Positions 9,481 through 37,361 of a stretch of DNA of 39,596 nucleotides are shown one piece after another. The stretch lies in the IMG/VR virus record IMGVR_UViG_2721755756_000002; one strand, written 5' to 3'. The translations under genes and the position numbers were made by a program. The stretch is from a virus (taxonomy: Duplodnaviria > Heunggongvirae > Uroviricota > Caudoviricetes). The notes under the pieces were generated by a model that was given only the letters and a program-made list of their open reading frames with translations, was not told the DNA's origin and did no database searches. Position 1 is the stretch's first letter. Every line of letters begins with the position of its first letter.

Positions 9481-9554
9481 ATACCTCTGGTGTAAAGGAA
9501 ACATAACGGTCTCCAAAACCGTTGCTCTCAGTTCGATTCTGAGGAGGTATGCCA
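9481..9554 (+). tRNA. tRNA-Trp (CCA)
   Basis: ATACCTC/GAGGTAT acceptor, ACGGT-CTCCAAA-ACCGT anticodon arm, CTCAG-TTCGATT-CTGAG T arm, G73 and encoded CCA. Confidence 0.92.
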
Positions 9555-9558
9555 ATAT

Positions 9559-9632
9559 TTCCGATTAGCCAAATGGAAAGGCAATGGACTTTGAATCCAT
9601 GAGTTCTGGTTCGACCCCAGAATCGGAAACCA
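9559..9632 (+). tRNA. tRNA-Gln (TTG)
   Basis: TTCCGAT/ATCGGAA acceptor, ATGGA-CTTTGAA-TCCAT anticodon arm, TCTGG-TTCGACC-CCAGA T arm, encoded CCA. Confidence 0.92.
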
Positions 9633-9890
9633 TTTAACACTTCTGAGCGGTTGTATTTGAGATTAAAGTAGCCAAGCATCAGATAGGCTTGCTTAAATAC
9701 GTAGAACGATACCACGCTCATTCGTATACACGGTTTCACTCAAATAATAGAGTGATGTGGCAGTACATGGTTTTTCTCCTCCAACTTGCGTAAATATACC
9801 TCCCTTTCTGTTTTTATCCTTTATGTTTATGTACTGCAAAATACAAAAAAGCTGCACAGTACCTATCGCCTTGTCTGTGCGGCAACATAT

Positions 9891-9964
9891 AGCGGAGTAG
9901 AGCAGTAGCAGCTCGCCACCCTCATAAGGTGGGGCGTGGGTGCAATTCCCGCCTCTCGCAACCA
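9891..9964 (+). tRNA. Atypical tRNA-Met (CAT), initiator-like
   Basis: GAGC/GCTC D-stem, CCACC-CTCATAA-GGTGG anticodon arm, GTGGG-TGCAATT-CCCGC T arm, ACCA end; 1-nt bulge in the acceptor stem. Confidence 0.75.
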
Positions 9965-19903: not shown

Positions 19904-19932
19904 TTCAGTATTTCTACTACCTGTGCTATGAT
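19904..19932 (+). promoter_or_regulatory. SigA-type promoter of the tail-module moron
   Basis: TTCAGT, 17-bp spacer, TG-n-TATGAT. Confidence 0.5.
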
Positions 19933-19957
19933 ATTGGTATCTAGGGAGGGAACGGAA

Positions 19958-31153: not shown

Positions 31154-31564
31154 ATGGATATGCTTTACACTGTTTTACTGGCAGATCTCAGCATGGTGCT
31201 GGTCTGCTACGCTATTTTACTGCTGGCTTTTGCAGCCAACGTGGTGCTGAGCCTGTACCACAACATCAATATCACAGGGGAGCATTTTGATGCCAAGCGA
31301 TTGTGGCAGGGAGTCAAAAAAGCTTTGGTGCTGGTCTTTGGCACTATGCTGATGGTTGCCGCCGTAGATGCAGCCACAACGCTGCTCACACAGTATGTGC
31401 CAGATATCAATGAGCAGGTGCATGACCTCATCACCGTGGCTATGATTGCAGCCACAATCGGTGTAGCAGCATGGCGATATATCAAGGATGCATACAGTAC
31501 GTTTATCAATATCCTTAATGGCAAGCCCTCTGAGGTCGCAGCTGCGGTGGATACAAAGGAGTAA
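31154..31564 (+). CDS. Holin
   Basis: Three hydrophobic segments; AAGGAG RBS; upstream of the endolysin. Confidence 0.75.
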   Translation: MDMLYTVLLADLSMVLVCYAILLLAFAANVVLSLYHNINITGEHFDAKRLWQGVKKALVLVFGTMLMVAAVDAATTLLTQYVPDINEQVHDLITVAMIAATIGVAAWRYIKDAYSTFINILNGKPSEVAAAVDTKE

Positions 31565-31567
31565 GAC

Positions 31568-31795
31568 ATGTCGGATGTAATTATTGTGGCTCTGATTGGA
31601 GGCGTATGCACAGCCATACCGTCATTGATAGCAACGGTAGTGATCAACAACAAATCGACAGCTGTCATGCAGTATAAAATAGACGACCTTACAAAAAAAG
31701 TGGAAAAACACAACAATGTTGTAGAACGTATGGCGGTTGCAGAAAACAGTATCAAATCGGCTCATCATAGAATCGATGACCTTATGGAAAAATAG
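31568..31795 (+). CDS. Holin-like/lysis accessory protein (single TM plus coiled coil)
   Basis: MSDVIIVALIGG...KHNNVVERM...SAHHRID pattern common in Firmicute lysis cassettes. Confidence 0.75.
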   Translation: MSDVIIVALIGGVCTAIPSLIATVVINNKSTAVMQYKIDDLTKKVEKHNNVVERMAVAENSIKSAHHRIDDLMEK

Positions 31796-31807
31796 GAGGA
31801 AACAAAA

Positions 31808-32635
31808 ATGGCATTTAAGAAAAGAACAAGCCTGTCCGGATTAACAGGCAGTAATTGGATGGATTGGGCGCTACGGCGTACAGGAGTGGCAATGCCAAAC
31901 TGCTTTACCTATGCTACAGCTCGTATCAGCGAGATTTTAGGGCGAGAGGAGTATTTGGATAGCCCACGGGTAAACGGCGCACAGGAGCTGTGGGATAACT
32001 ACTCAGACGGCTTTAAACGCTCAAAATATGCTGTAGAGGGTGCACTCATGATCTGGCAGTCAGGACAGTGGGGGCATGTAGCAGTTTGTGAGGAACTTAT
32101 TGACACCAACACGATCGCATGGAGCCAGTCCAACTACGGCGGGGCAATGTTTGAATATGTGAAAGGAAATCCGAACGGGTACAAAGGCATGAAATTTTTA
32201 GGATATCTGGTACATGATAAACTGCCGAAAGCAGAGGCAGCAAAACCATCTACTAGTAAGCCGACTACTACTGGCATTAAGGCGGGCAATAAGGTCAAAA
32301 TCAAGTCCAGCGCTAAAAAGTACGCTACTGGTCAGACAATCCCCGCATGGGCTAAAGGCAAGACATATACCGTACAGCAGGTATCTGGCAGTAAGGCGCT
32401 GATTAAAGAGCTTGTGTCATGGGTTAAAACATCCGATTTACAGATGACCGGCGCAGCTGCGGTGATTGCAGTCGGCAAAAAGGTCAAAGTTAAAAAGACG
32501 GCCAAGACCTATGCAACAGGGCAGAGCATTCCGGCGTTTGTAAAAGGTACGACTTACACAGTCATGCAGATCAGCGGGGATAAGGTACTACTGAAAGAAA
32601 TCATGAGCTGGGTACGTAAATCTGATTTGGAATAA
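31808..32635 (+). CDS. Endolysin: CHAP domain plus two SH3-like cell-wall binding repeats
   Basis: PNCFTYA (Cys) and GHVAV (His); two ~55-aa repeats G.KVK.K..AK.YATGQ.IPA..KG.TYTV.Q.SG.K.L.KE..SWV..SDL. Confidence 0.9.
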   Translation: MAFKKRTSLSGLTGSNWMDWALRRTGVAMPNCFTYATARISEILGREEYLDSPRVNGAQELWDNYSDGFKRSKYAVEGALMIWQSGQWGHVAVCEELIDTNTIAWSQSNYGGAMFEYVKGNPNGYKGMKFLGYLVHDKLPKAEAAKPSTSKPTTTGIKAGNKVKIKSSAKKYATGQTIPAWAKGKTYTVQQVSGSKALIKELVSWVKTSDLQMTGAAAVIAVGKKVKVKKTAKTYATGQSIPAFVKGTTYTVMQISGDKVLLKEIMSWVRKSDLE

Positions 32636-33018: not shown

Positions 33019-33585
33019 ATGATATACATCATTATAATAAGCTTGATTATAATTATTGTTCCGCCTATTTTTATAATACTCAGTAATTTAGATTATAGGA
33101 AAACGATTATAAGTGAATGTTCACAAGTTTACGGTATAGAATTAAATACCATAAGTGTAAAATATACAATATTAGAAGACAGGGTAGCTAAATATCCTAT
33201 GATGAATAAAGAAATAAAAAGACTCATCAAACTGGAAAAAGATAAATATGTAGATATAAATAAGCTAGTAGTTGGTAAATTTAAAATATCTGATTTGGTA
33301 CCTTTGTGTAAAAGTATACAGTTGTTTAATGAAATTGAAGAGTGTAAGGATAAGGGCGTTATTGATTTATTTGATGATGTGAGAGAAATGAATCATAAGA
33401 TAGCAACAGTAAGGTCGCCTTTAAAATGCAAGATTAATGGTATGAAATCAAAAATACAATTCTTTATTATATTGATTATAGTTAAGCTATTTAACAAATT
33501 TAAGGATTTTACCCGGCAAGATATAGAACAAGTTGAGAAAGATAACGATTTTACAGTTGATTCAAATTTAGGTTTACTTAATTAG
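33019..33585 (+). CDS. Moron: membrane protein with N- and C-terminal hydrophobic segments
   Basis: AGGAGGGGG RBS; very AT-rich. Confidence 0.8.
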   Translation: MIYIIIISLIIIIVPPIFIILSNLDYRKTIISECSQVYGIELNTISVKYTILEDRVAKYPMMNKEIKRLIKLEKDKYVDINKLVVGKFKISDLVPLCKSIQLFNEIEECKDKGVIDLFDDVREMNHKIATVRSPLKCKINGMKSKIQFFIILIIVKLFNKFKDFTRQDIEQVEKDNDFTVDSNLGLLN

Positions 33586-33615
33586 CTACTCTCCACACAA
33601 GAGAGTGGCTTTTTT
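33584..33615 (+). terminator. Terminator of the moron operon
   Basis: AGCTACTCTC-CACACAA-GAGAGTGGCT followed by a T-tract. Confidence 0.75.
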
Positions 33616-33616
33616 A

Positions 33617-33735
33617 TTTACATTTCAACATATAAGTAGTATAGTATATAAGCAATCACTTAATGATTGTATCGCCCTTTTTCCCCCATTATTTGTTCAT
33701 GAGGACGATAAGCCGGCTTTATGTCGGCTTTTTTT
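33617..33735 (+). ncRNA. Candidate sRNA unit 1 (promoter, hairpin, C-rich tract, terminator)
   Basis: TTTACA-17-TATAGT; CAATCA/TGATTG hairpin; CCCTTTTTCCCCCA; AAGCCGGC-TTTAT-GTCGGCTT followed by a T-tract. Confidence 0.5.
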
Positions 33736-33775
33736 GTTAAACATGGAACTTCCAATATTTTACTACGATAATGAT

Positions 33776-33875
33776 TTGCAATTTTTGAAGAAATGCTATA
33801 TAATTTCGTAGTCACTCTTTCATACAGTTTATGCAGTGACAATGGGACAAAAGCCAGCTTATAGCCGGCTTTTTA
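33776..33875 (+). ncRNA. Candidate sRNA unit 2
   Basis: TTGCAA-17-TATAAT; GTCACT/AGTGAC hairpin; AAAAGCC...GGCTTTT terminator. Confidence 0.55.
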
Positions 33876-33914
33876 TTATCGGATTAAAATTAAGGAAAAT
33901 TAAATAATTTAGAA

Positions 33915-34030
33915 TTTACATACGGAGGAAATATGATAGAATGATATTGGCATAATTATATGCTTCTGCCTAGGTATCTTTATGCTATCCATCTAAAAAG
34001 ATGGGGAACCGGTTCTATACCGGTTTTTTT
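33915..34030 (+). ncRNA. Candidate sRNA unit 3
   Basis: TTTACA-16-(TG-n)TAGAAT; GCATA/TATGC and CCATCT/AGATGG hairpins; AACCGGT-TCTAT-ACCGGTT followed by a T-tract. Confidence 0.5.
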
Positions 34031-34069
34031 GTAAAGTTTTATAACATTTAATAAAATAGTATCAATGTA

Positions 34070-34180
34070 TTTACAAATAGTTGATTGAGGTATATAATGA
34101 TTACGTTGCCGCCCATTAAAAAGAAAGGGATACCTAGGCAGTATTTTGCGGCACTTGACCACCTTAATGGTGGTTTTTCA
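34070..34180 (+). ncRNA. Candidate sRNA unit 4
   Basis: TTTACA-17-TATAAT; TGCCGC/GCGGCA long hairpin; GACCACC-TTAAT-GGTGGTT followed by TTT. Confidence 0.55.
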
Positions 34181-34237
34181 TTTATTTTATAAAAAATCCC
34201 GTATTTGATGATTTATTTCCTTTTTTAAATTTTTATG

Positions 34238-34337
34238 TGAGATAATGTGCACGGCAGCATAGATATCTTACTCTCCCCCAAGTCCGTATCATATCTTCCG
34301 AGCGCTGCCAGCTCCTGTCTATGCGCAGGAGTTTTTA
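34238..34337 (+). ncRNA. Candidate sRNA unit 5 (or 3' UTR structure of the convergent gene)
   Basis: TG-n-GATAAT with a weak -35; GGCAGC/GCTGCC and AGATAT/ATATCT helices enclosing CTTACTCTCCCCCA; CTCCTG/CAGGAG followed by T5. Confidence 0.4.
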
Positions 34338-34598
34338 TGGTCTTAAGCTCTCAATAAACCACCTGAATTTTCCGGGACCCATATACTCGTAGTATATAGT
34401 TCTGGTCGCTGCTCCAACCTGCACAACAAACATTTCACCACCACCACCGCAGTTTTTGCTATGGCATTGTGGTTTATGGCGTATGATCTTGTCCACCTCA
34501 TAGCGCTCCCCATCCCATATTAACGCCAGGGGAGTGATATCGCCCATTTTATCGACGAGCATTTCTACTTCTATATATTTTTTGTACATTCTTTGCAT
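34335..34598 (-). CDS. Small beta-rich protein of the family usually found beside Y-family (DinB/UmuC-like) polymerase genes in Firmicute elements
   Basis: KYIEV...DKMGDITPLAL.W.GERYEVDKI...GGGG..F.V.VG...R.IYYE pattern; GAGGTGA RBS. Confidence 0.65.
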   Translation of the reverse strand: MQRMYKKYIEVEMLVDKMGDITPLALIWDGERYEVDKIIRHKPQCHSKNCGGGGEMFVVQVGAATRTIYYEYMGPGKFRWFIESLRP

Positions 34599-36009: not shown

Positions 36010-37227
36010 CTATATTTTGATTTTTTCAATTTCATGTAATAGATATTCTAATGGCTCGTGGGTATATATATCATCTGTAATATCGTTACATACATGTCCC
36101 ATTATCTTTTTGTGAGCGGCTGTATCTACATGGTAAACTTTGGCTAATGTTGAAAATGTATATCGTGTATCATACGGCTCTGTATGGTCTAATTTTAATC
36201 GGATCATGCATTCCTTAAATTCTTTGTTATACTTTATATAATCCATTTCTGTATATGATTCAGAAAAAAAGTATGTATAACGATATCGGTCATTGAAATA
36301 TTCAATATATTGTTTAATATATGAATGAATAGGGATAATTCGCATTTTGCCAGCTTTTGTTTTAACTCCACCTATCATATAATTTTCATCTAAATGTATA
36401 TCACATCGCTTCATTGTTATTAATTCGATAGGTCGTGCTCCTGTGAATATATAAATTAAAATTTTTTTAGCTATATCAGTTTCATCAGCAATTAGTGTTT
36501 TGATTTCTTCAACTGTAAAAGGTTTTCTTTTGTTTCTTGGCTCTGAAGTTGGAACTGTATTGATGAATTGTGTATAGTCCTTTTCTATATAATCCATTTT
36601 TATTGCGTACTTTATGATTAAACGGCAAACATGAAGCATATTATTAAGTGTACTTTTACCGCAATATCTTTTTTTACTTCTTATATCGAATGCATTTTGA
36701 AACTCATTAGTTTTTATTTGATTTACAGGTAAATCATGTAAAGACTTAAGGCTTTTAAATGCAGCAGACATTGATCTTTTCCAACTGTCAGAATTAACTC
36801 TGGATAATCGTTCAAATTCTATTTCCCAAATTTCAGAAAATGATGGAATATCTGACAAAATTAACTCTTGCTTTGTATCAATATTCAATAAAGTGTTTCC
36901 CATTAAAATCATTCTGTCTTTGAAAAGATTATTGTAAAAGTCAATGTCCTTAAGATTATTAACAAGCATATCAAGAGTACCTTTCTTCTGGAATTCAAAC
37001 AAAAATCTTGCATATTCTGTTTTTAGGAAATCTACTTCACCTAAAAATGTTGGGTAGGATTTAGATATTTCTAATTGATGTTTTAAAAGTGCAAGTTCAG
37101 CTTCTTCAGCAAACTGGAATGTTCCAATACACTTTTTTTCATAAGTCGCTACATAGGGTTTCCTACGCCCTTCTCCTAGATATGACACTGAACCTGATCC
37201 TTTTACTCTGCGCCTCTTTTTTTTCAT
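36010..37227 (-). CDS. int: Tyrosine recombinase/integrase
   Basis: AAGGAG RBS before ATG 37227; N-terminal arm-binding GSGSVSYL...RKPY; catalytic TGARPIE (R), KTKAG (K), YDTRYT, MGH, DIYTH (Y). Confidence 0.92.
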   Translation of the reverse strand: MKKKRRRVKGSGSVSYLGEGRRKPYVATYEKKCIGTFQFAEEAELALLKHQLEISKSYPTFLGEVDFLKTEYARFLFEFQKKGTLDMLVNNLKDIDFYNNLFKDRMILMGNTLLNIDTKQELILSDIPSFSEIWEIEFERLSRVNSDSWKRSMSAAFKSLKSLHDLPVNQIKTNEFQNAFDIRSKKRYCGKSTLNNMLHVCRLIIKYAIKMDYIEKDYTQFINTVPTSEPRNKRKPFTVEEIKTLIADETDIAKKILIYIFTGARPIELITMKRCDIHLDENYMIGGVKTKAGKMRIIPIHSYIKQYIEYFNDRYRYTYFFSESYTEMDYIKYNKEFKECMIRLKLDHTEPYDTRYTFSTLAKVYHVDTAAHKKIMGHVCNDITDDIYTHEPLEYLLHEIEKIKI

Positions 37228-37253
37228 ATTCTTTACTCTCCTTAAATTAGTAT

Positions 37254-37276
37254 AAATTTGGTGTAAATTTGGTGTA
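37254..37276. repeat. Direct repeat AAATTTGGTGT x2 (probable integrase arm-type sites)
   Basis: Perfect 11-bp tandem at 37254 and 37265, between the int RBS and the att-like core. Confidence 0.6.
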
Positions 37277-37361
37277 ACCAATAAAACACAACATTGCTAA
37301 TTGAAAATCTATATTGCTGATATTAACTGTTATTGCTATTGTTTTGATACATTAACTATAT

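Follow-up and report, generated by a model that had tools for sequence, protein, structure and literature searches.

A predicted array of small-RNA genes, with a candidate sRNA/anti-sRNA pair, in the accessory slot of a temperate phage

What is encoded in a gene-free stretch of ~750 bases that separates the lysis genes of a temperate phage from its integration genes? The stretch belongs to the IMG/VR virus record IMGVR_UViG_2721755756_000002, a temperate phage genome of 39,596 nucleotides (nt) that was analyzed at its full length and is called the window here, and it holds five separate promoter-to-terminator units, all on the + strand. We refer to these units together as the array, which occupies an accessory (‘moron’) slot because it is flanked by lysis genes on one side and by the integrase on the other. 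An earlier note on this DNA had read the units as a prophage-encoded cassette of small RNAs (sRNAs). The reading that we favor, with moderate confidence, is a prediction from sequence in which the array consists of functional, independently transcribed sRNA genes that include an sRNA/anti-sRNA pair. The sRNA-cassette reading is supported by comparative evidence, and the mechanisms proposed below are what we infer for it. For the comparisons, 152 related loci were collected via the open reading frame (ORF) upstream of the array, the endolysin gene and unit-specific DNA patterns; their sources were Clostridiaceae bacterium OM02-2AC, one metagenome-assembled genome labelled Streptococcus and, for nearly all others, human-gut metagenomes. 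The units of the window are named U1 to U5, families found in relatives only are named UA, UB and UC, and letter suffixes denote variants (U3a–e, U4b–e, U5b).

The first part of the answer comes from the architecture of the stretch itself. Four near-consensus promoters (10–11 of 12 positions), each with an intrinsic terminator 65–85 nt on, lie at 33617–34179 (+). A consensus scan places them at 33617..33645 (U1, TTTACA-17-TATAGT), 33776..33804 (U2, TTGCAA-17-TATAAT), 33915..33942 (U3, TTTACA-16-TGnTAGAAT) and 34070..34098 (U4, TTTACA-17-TATAAT, 11/12), all on the + strand, and relatives have conserved the promoters of U1, U2 and U3. The fifth unit, at 34236–34338 (+), has an extended −10 box only, read in the sequence as TGTGAGATAAT at 34236..34246 (+) with TGaGATAAT at 34238–34246 and a weak −35 region, and the U5 promoters of relatives score at least 10/12. 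The promoters follow one another at 159, 139, 155 and 168 base pairs (bp). Terminators at 33710, 34157 and 34310 were found by consensus scan, those of U2 and U3 (33851 and 34006) contain one mismatch or wobble pair and were recovered by an energy-based scan, and the terminators of U1, U2 and U3 share 71–79% identity. The motif TCCCCCA is present at 33682–33688 and 34274–34280. All of these features, namely the promoters of units 1–4, the extended −10 box of unit 5, the spacing, the related terminators and the two C-rich motifs, had been described in the earlier note, and the consensus scan and our own reading of the sequence place them where that note had put them.

Could such a row of signals arise by chance? 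A detector that requires a promoter of at least 10/12, a short body and a terminator was run on both strands, and it reported six units in the whole 39.6-kb window, four of them inside the array. Dinucleotide shuffles of the array (300 in number) gave 0.04 ± 0.19 units, with a maximum of one, and the clustering of units is far above chance. In each predicted RNA a 5′ stem-loop, starting at +1 or +2, is combined with a terminator, and the fold z-scores of the predicted RNAs range from −2.0 to −4.2 relative to shuffles; the scans, folds and shuffles thus bear out the description of each unit as a promoter, a 5′ hairpin and a terminator. Two of the five C-runs of at least 5 nt in the window fall in the array, in predicted loops. 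The statement that the stretch contains no credible ORF also stands, as none of the ORFs within the array exceeds 68 amino acids (aa) and none has a conserved Shine-Dalgarno sequence or a conserved frame. Are the units members of a known RNA family? An Rfam 15 scan of the window returned only three transfer RNAs (tRNAs), all of them elsewhere than the array, and at permissive thresholds the best array matches reached 14–23 bits, compared with gathering thresholds of 37–90. The same scan of related arrays and stand-alone U4 loci returned one tRNA only, and no match to RsaE/RoxS, LhrC or csRNA.

A second line of evidence is the recurrence of U4 as an RNA family. A covariance model of U4 (R1) was built from 14 variants, and in this model the predicted RNA of ~75 nt (34105..34179, +) has a 6-bp closing stem, a large A-rich loop and a terminator. 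Among the collected loci the model finds 94 copies, 43 of them distinct. In the resulting alignment 97.3% of cells are paired, compared with 28–62% in slid-register controls, and seven pairs are changed on both sides, compared with 2.8 in shuffles (1 of 500 shuffles reached this value); the alignment was fitted to the model, so these figures lean towards structure. One pair of the U4 5′ stem switches from G-C to A-U, and the 5′ stems of U4, U2 and U3 each contain one compensatory pair. The sequences upstream of U4 are also informative. Among 25 distinct upstream sequences, which are partly non-homologous, a TATAAT or TATGAT box ends 7 nt before the start of the model in 18 and 8 nt before it in 4. 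Since 22 of 25 −10 boxes stand 7–8 nt before the stem, transcription would be expected to start at the U4 stem, and this geometry, which is hard to explain otherwise, argues for predicted independent transcription of U4.

Where does the U4 family occur? When the model was compared with 151 genomes of the same family, matches were found in three only. One complete genome contains six copies, two of which are in prophage arrays and four of which are alone in unrelated intergenic regions, and stand-alone copies are present in genomes of the Clostridium innocuum group. In seven distinct stand-alone promoters (L044, L062, L076, L082, L110, L125 and L141) the sequence (T)TCGACA replaces the −35 box, 43–52 nt upstream of the gene. 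A second CGACA often follows 10–11 nt downstream, the sequence farther upstream is unrelated among these promoters, and the prophage copies of U4 have TTTACA-17-TATAAT instead of (T)TCGACA. TTCGACA is the reverse complement of the Spo0A box TGTCGAA. Because Spo0A-box-like sites replace the −35 box in some chromosomal copies, U4 may be linked to stationary phase or sporulation.

The third line of evidence concerns the relation between U4 and its neighbor. Folding of U3, present in the window as U3a, predicts an RNA of ~81 nt (33949..34029, +) in which a short 5′ hairpin is followed by an exposed seed, another hairpin and a terminator. A repeat search revealed the seed, CTGCCTAGGTATC at 33966..33978 (+), to be the exact reverse complement of positions 34129–34141, which are the U4 core, GATACCTAGGCAG (34129..34141, +), located in the loop of the predicted U4 RNA. 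We regard this complementarity, which is not mentioned in the earlier note, as the most telling property of the array. This 13-mer is found nowhere else in the window, the lysogeny-control region included. It occurs five times in a 4.8-Mb related genome, where 0.14 occurrences are expected, and an 11-mer occurs eight times in a 4.5-Mb complete genome, in each case (8/8) in a U4-type or U3-type gene. U3 is carried on five scaffolds (a, b, c, e and the stand-alone d) that have little in common beyond the core, and in every one of them the core is antisense to the U4 core relative to the scaffold’s own promoter and terminator. Within the core, the only substitutions seen replace a C that stands opposite G by U, in U3c and U4c, so that pairing is kept by wobble. 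The predicted U3–U4 duplex comprises 13–17 nt, stand-alone U4 copies included, and reaches 17 bp in U3c and U3e. Duplex prediction over all pairs of units leaves only U3–U4 standing out (−31.8 kcal/mol, z = −3.6), and after the cost of unfolding all U3 scaffolds gain 6–23 kcal/mol with U4, compared with ~0 for U1, U2, UA and U5. When U3a and U3b are aligned together, the result suggests that both share a short hairpin at the 5′ end, whose formation would leave the seed single-stranded. In silico, then, U3 is complementary to the putative functional region of another predicted sRNA that is also encoded by the host. A gapped scan for the inverted core in viral contigs added only two matches, L074 and L075, both attributable to chance. 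Separately, the stand-alone U3d (L050 = G002:C88; L120) has a long 5′ hairpin, the core CTGCCTAGGTATC and its own terminator, with no U4 nearby.

The remaining three units add variation of a similar kind. For U1, folding predicts an RNA of ~84 nt (33652..33735, +) with a 5′ hairpin, a second stem whose loop holds the C-run at 33682–33688, and a terminator. The predicted U2 RNA of ~65 nt (33811..33875, +) consists of a 5′ hairpin, the single-stranded AAUGGGAC and a terminator. One pair in its 5′ stem runs from A-U through G·U to G-C across variants, and about half of the variants carry its terminator hairpin as the exact reverse complement (33851–33873 in the window compared with 7922–7944 in L011); the hairpin is preserved when this quasi-palindrome is inverted. 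Among eight U2 variants, 23% of columns are variable in the spacer upstream of the −35 box, compared with 6% in the promoter and 7% in the 5′ domain of the RNA, and of the three columns that vary in the RNA domain, two form the compensatory pair. The expectation in the earlier note that hairpins would be kept relative to spacers is thereby borne out, by the 6–7% against 23% of variable columns and by the compensatory stem changes. The predicted U5 RNA of ~85 nt (34254..34338, +) has an outer stem GCAGC/GCUGC, an inner stem AGAUAU/AUAUCU, a loop with CUCUCCCCCA and a terminator. Its 12 variants carry four different terminators, both stems are invariant, and the C-run of the loop is present in all but one variant. 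U1 and U5 thus have a C-rich motif in predicted unpaired loops in common, and compensatory or wobble-preserving changes are seen in the stems of U2, U3 and U5.

How might such units work together? We hypothesize that the array would represent five independent sRNA genes in the lysis–integrase slot of a temperate phage of the C. innocuum group, each with its own housekeeping-type promoter and intrinsic terminator that would give rise to an RNA of 65–85 nt with a protective 5′ stem, and that these RNAs would act in trans by base pairing. In this model U4 belongs to a multicopy sRNA family with stand-alone chromosomal copies and would display its conserved core in the large loop, U3 would be an anti-sRNA whose exposed seed pairs with 13–17 nt of that core, and the two would titrate, or be degraded together with, one another and the host copies of the U4 family. 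The C-rich (UCCC-type) loops of U1 and U5 are of the kind that occludes G-rich ribosome-binding sites in Gram-positive bacteria of low GC content and may act likewise, and U5 would additionally be antisense to the 3′ end of the message of a convergent gene, orf87; the model gives U2 no partner. Related prophages would exchange the cassettes at similar terminators. A broader version of this model is more tentative, and we regard it as possible but rather doubtful: the U4 family would be a host riboregulator of the C. innocuum group, temperate phages would carry a constitutively promoted U4 together with its cognate anti-sRNA U3, on five scaffolds, and a library of sRNA cassettes exchanged at terminator microhomologies would let a prophage rewire the RNA network of its host.

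Is there evidence that the cassettes move? In more than 30 related loci of viral, genomic or metagenomic origin the units recur at 84–100% identity; their order, U1 < U2 < UA < U3 < U4 < U5, is constant, and the sets of units differ. The architectures seen are U1-U2-U3a-U4-[1.2 kb]-U5, U2-UA-U3b-U4, U2-UA-U3c-U4-[34-aa ORF]-U5, U2-U3a-U4, and U5 alone. The window corresponds to the first of these minus the 1.2-kb insert, and comparison with relatives locates the deletion scar at 34185..34210, where the 3′ half of the last, bidirectional terminator of the insert is retained. In a relative (L001 5165–6366, between U4 and U5) the insert contains a 77-aa Cys-rich gene and a 129-aa minus-strand gene, as well as a second U4-like unit, U4c, in which the −10 box directly adjoins the stem, and an ORF of 34 aa that has a good ribosome-binding site; from their sequences, U4 and U4c look like repeats between which deletions took place. 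UA (with three C-runs in one loop), UB and UC occupy the same slot in relatives and are missing from the window, and one relative is a different phage, with another lysin, that has an array in the same slot. Breakpoints between arrays coincide with unit borders, at mutually similar terminators (CCGG...CCGGCTTTTT), so the modular gain and loss of units that the earlier note had anticipated is observed among related prophages. Recombination at short terminator homologies is a plausible route for this shuffling, and the cassette pool, as judged from sequence, is composed of at least nine families.

The same mobility invites the best surviving alternative, which is that the units are empty moron shells, i.e. 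promoters, leaders and terminators left behind after the loss of cargo genes and kept by close kinship, with no function as RNA. The slot is indeed a cargo region with insertion and deletion, as the 1.2-kb insert in relatives and the scar in the window attest; this phage group does contain promoter-leader cassettes whose cargo genes have been swapped; the identity of the arrays is high overall; and some copies look decayed. Several observations weigh against this reading. The body of U4 is conserved, with compensatory changes, despite unrelated promoters, terminators and surroundings, the five scaffolds of U3 retain only the 13-nt core, the units keep strong 5′ stems from +1 or +2, and the 152 loci yielded no homologous cassette in which a gene stands between the promoter and the terminator. 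We therefore consider empty shells unlikely, at roughly a quarter of the weight given to functional sRNA genes.

Slightly less probable still is the explanation that the RNAs are real and serve as decoys of host defense or of RNA-binding proteins, either as mimics of clustered regularly interspaced short palindromic repeats (CRISPR), as tRNA-like baits or as protein sponges. Accessory genes do adjoin the arrays, including in one relative (L040 778–1459, between the lysin gene and a U5-type unit) a pair that we take, from sequence, to be HicB-like and HicA-like genes; no messenger RNA target was found within the phage; and the inner hairpin of U4 has a 5-bp stem and a 7-nt loop. Yet this loop has C where tRNAs have a purine, and the GGA motif is missing from many U4 variants, and both a tRNA anticodon-arm mimic and CsrA-type GGA motifs were rejected for U4 because the motifs are not conserved. 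A CRISPR-repeat mimic was rejected as well, as a complete related genome has the U2 hairpin a single time; in three related genomes BLAST of the array finds only arrays and U4 copies, with no match of any unit to a multicopy repeat. The neighboring proteins match no defense or anti-defense model, and the conserved U3–U4 complementarity is a prediction of a base-pairing role. The suggestions in the earlier note of RNA-based anti-defense and of antitoxins thus gain no support from the repeat, protein-model and genome comparisons.

Does the complementarity of U3 and U4 have to be read at the level of RNA? If the 13-mer inverted pair were a protein-binding (operator or looping) site in the DNA, the promoters and terminators would only insulate neighboring genes. 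The two 13-mers are indeed a perfect inverted repeat, whose arms lie 150 bp apart and flank a CCTAGG palindrome, and terminators are expected after a late operon in any case. Against this, the motif is missing from the rest of the phage, its lysogeny-control region included; in stand-alone U4 copies it has a fixed place inside a covarying RNA stem-loop; the independent U3 scaffolds all carry it antisense relative to their own promoter and terminator; and changes in the core are restricted to those that keep RNA pairing. For these reasons, i.e. the missing site in the control region, the fixed position in a covarying stem-loop and the strand-consistent, pairing-preserving changes, the U3/U4 pattern fits an sRNA plus anti-sRNA and fits a DNA operator poorly, and we regard DNA-level elements as improbable.

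The gene next to U5 brings in the last alternative. orf87 (34335..34598, −), taken from the ORF list and from its homologues, encodes a conserved protein of 87 aa, is convergent with U5 and has its stop codon inside the U5 T-tract. U5 is followed by convergent orf87 at a constant distance in 10 contigs, and orf87 is always found with U5, while four U5-type copies occur without orf87. No minus-strand terminator precedes U5, and in relatives the next one is a bidirectional hairpin upstream of U5. Given the position of the stop codon in the T-tract and the lack of a terminator on the minus strand before U5, the 3′ untranslated region of orf87 should, by geometry, be antisense to U5. This arrangement is similar to the 3′-overlapping type I toxin-antitoxin pairs of Bacillus subtilis prophages, bsrG/SR4 and txpA/RatA, in that U5 converges on orf87 and would be antisense to the 3′ end of its message; it differs from them in that orf87 is an 87-aa soluble all-beta protein and no small membrane peptide. 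The protein is conserved over a narrow range and is predicted to be soluble and all-beta, with a mean predicted local distance difference test score (pLDDT) of 84.6. Its homologues are unnamed, no fold match was found in the PDB, and matches in the AlphaFold database (AFDB) are to uncharacterized proteins, one of them labelled DUF6504. On the basis of this model, orf87 does not look like a type I toxin. No hydrophobic toxin ORF with a ribosome-binding site was found, and the antisense overlap is present by geometry only.

The explanation that the units are small-peptide genes or type I toxin-antitoxin systems (a 31-aa U4 peptide with U3 as its antisense, or orf87 as a toxin with U5), to which a GAGG-6-ATG start at 34087–34099 and the U5/orf87 overlap might point, is very improbable, since the start codon in U4 and the −10 box overlap, relatives lack the corresponding Shine-Dalgarno sequence, an indel in the terminator loop shifts the frame, the 31-aa peptide has no hydrophobic character, U4 is found in stand-alone copies that have no U3, orf87 is not a membrane peptide and U5-type copies exist without it. 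Two further frames, MLLPRY in U3 and a minus-strand ORF of 60 aa, were considered as coding sequences and rejected because they are not conserved in relatives.

Which messages would the predicted sRNAs reach, and what weighs against reading the units as functional sRNA genes? Within the phage no target stands out. The loops of the units have complementary stretches of 9–12 nt in phage messages at chance level, and duplexes of six RNAs with 53 phage translation-start sites give a best z of −2 to −3, again at chance level; these comparisons point to no Shine-Dalgarno target of the C-rich loops within the phage. U1 is the weakest-supported unit, with only three variants that differ just in the length of the T/C-run, and the overall divergence among arrays is low, so that conservation alone is weak evidence for U1 and U2. 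Some copies look decayed, namely a UA variant in G002, U4c with its misplaced −10 box and the one U5 variant that lacks its C-run. The covariation in U4 is mainly in the terminator helix, which is swapped between copies, and the fitting of that alignment to its model has been mentioned above. There is also a puzzle in the layout, as the reason for carrying an sRNA and its own antagonist side by side in one phage is not obvious. Each of these observations weighs against the sRNA-gene reading.

A possible partner of U3 emerged elsewhere in the window. At 19922–19952 a 31-nt sequence combines an extended −10 promoter, a leader and a strong ribosome-binding site, and has the form of a moron expression cassette. 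It is 100% conserved before four cargo genes in tail modules, encoding a 335-aa protein, a zinc-ribbon protein, a lipoprotein and another (also in L148, L149, L151 and L152). The leader carries GGTATCTAGGGAGG, and pairing of the U3 seed with it could span the ribosome-binding site. The candidate site on the leader (19936) ranks only about ninth by energy among + strand sites of the window, which is at chance level, and some phages with U3 arrays lack the 31-nt leader cassette. The pairing of U3 with this leader is thus an unproven lead only.

How does the array compare with systems already described? The earlier note knew of no described phage system with such a multi-unit layout, and as a general claim this is too strong in view of the five-copy LhrC of Listeria (PMC4132741) and the sRNA/anti-sRNA pairs of prophages of enterohemorrhagic Escherichia coli (EHEC) (PMC4104026). 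AgvB and AsxR are anti-sRNAs of EHEC prophages that are located at a moron site, are encoded in sRNA pairs, have conserved and variable parts and act by mimicry (Tree et al. 2014, PMC4104026). The likeness is that small RNAs lie in the moron slot of a temperate prophage, are encoded in sRNA pairs and combine a conserved with a variable part, and that a target-mimicking RNA would pair with the seed of an sRNA that is also encoded by the host. In contrast to AgvB and AsxR, the array has no sequence or Rfam relation to them (U3 has no Rfam match to the E. coli anti-sRNA family, which is from a different phylum), its host would be a Gram-positive anaerobe with no known Hfq dependence, its units number five and not two and are co-directional and not convergent, and the targeted family, U4, is itself carried beside its antagonist.

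LhrC1–5 of Listeria monocytogenes are multicopy sRNAs that use UCCC motifs, in loops and single-stranded stretches, to block ribosome-binding sites rich in G by pairing with them (Sievers et al. 2014, PMC4132741). They resemble the array in their UCCC motifs and in being a set of sRNA genes, each of ~100 nt and transcribed separately, in a Gram-positive of low GC content. Some LhrC copies adjoin one another. The LhrC genes are homologous chromosomal siblings under one regulator, whereas the units of the array are unrelated to one another, prophage-borne and shuffled, and have no Rfam match to LhrC. A Firmicute prophage sRNA that pairs with another regulatory RNA is exemplified by SprY, which is encoded by prophage phi12 of Staphylococcus aureus and acts as a sponge of RNAIII (cited in PMC12197685); SprY differs in being a single gene whose partner is a chromosomal master regulator, and has no sequence relation to the array. 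PasA–D of prophages in pathogenic E. coli vary in copy number and were spread by repeated acquisition (bioRxiv 10.64898/2026.05.13.724894), which makes them similar to the array units as prophage sRNA genes of variable copy number that are acquired repeatedly.

What, then, is new? The general kind is already known, since tandem or multicopy sRNA genes and prophage anti-sRNAs have been described, and the layout of the array is not unique. What appears to be new are the RNA families themselves, a heterologous and cassette-shuffled array in a phage of a gut Firmicute, an sRNA beside its own complement, and a family shared by prophage and chromosome. Regulatory RNAs have hardly been explored in gut Firmicutes and their phages, and Rfam contains none of the families described here. 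Provided that the units are expressed, they would constitute a compact, heterologous array of sRNA cargo in a Gram-positive prophage, together with a multicopy sRNA family common to host and phage, and the built-in sRNA/anti-sRNA pair would be a case of phage–host RNA cross-talk, which has been documented so far mainly in pathogenic E. coli.

The surroundings of the array complete the picture. A holin-like pair and a CHAP endolysin are encoded at 31154–32635, and the endolysin gene is followed by two small ORFs of no known function, the array, orf87 on the minus strand, two + strand ORFs and a tyrosine integrase, which the gene annotation of the window places at 36010–37281 (−). The 188-aa ORF upstream (33019–33585, +) ends at the left border of the array, and the terminator scan locates its intrinsic terminator at 33584..33610 (+), which forms this border; a related hairpin stands before U2 in arrays that lack U1. 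The proteins neighboring the array were assigned no function by Pfam, PHROG or PADLOC, a BLAST comparison of the array region with GenBank phages gave no match, and in the nearest virus record compared the array region is missing. The prophage is probably of the Clostridium innocuum type and from the gut. In C. innocuum I46, which belongs to the OMM12 model community, prophages are inducible (PMC10197239). Three phage tRNA genes (Trp, Gln and Met) are located far from the array, in the packaging region of the window at 9481–9960.

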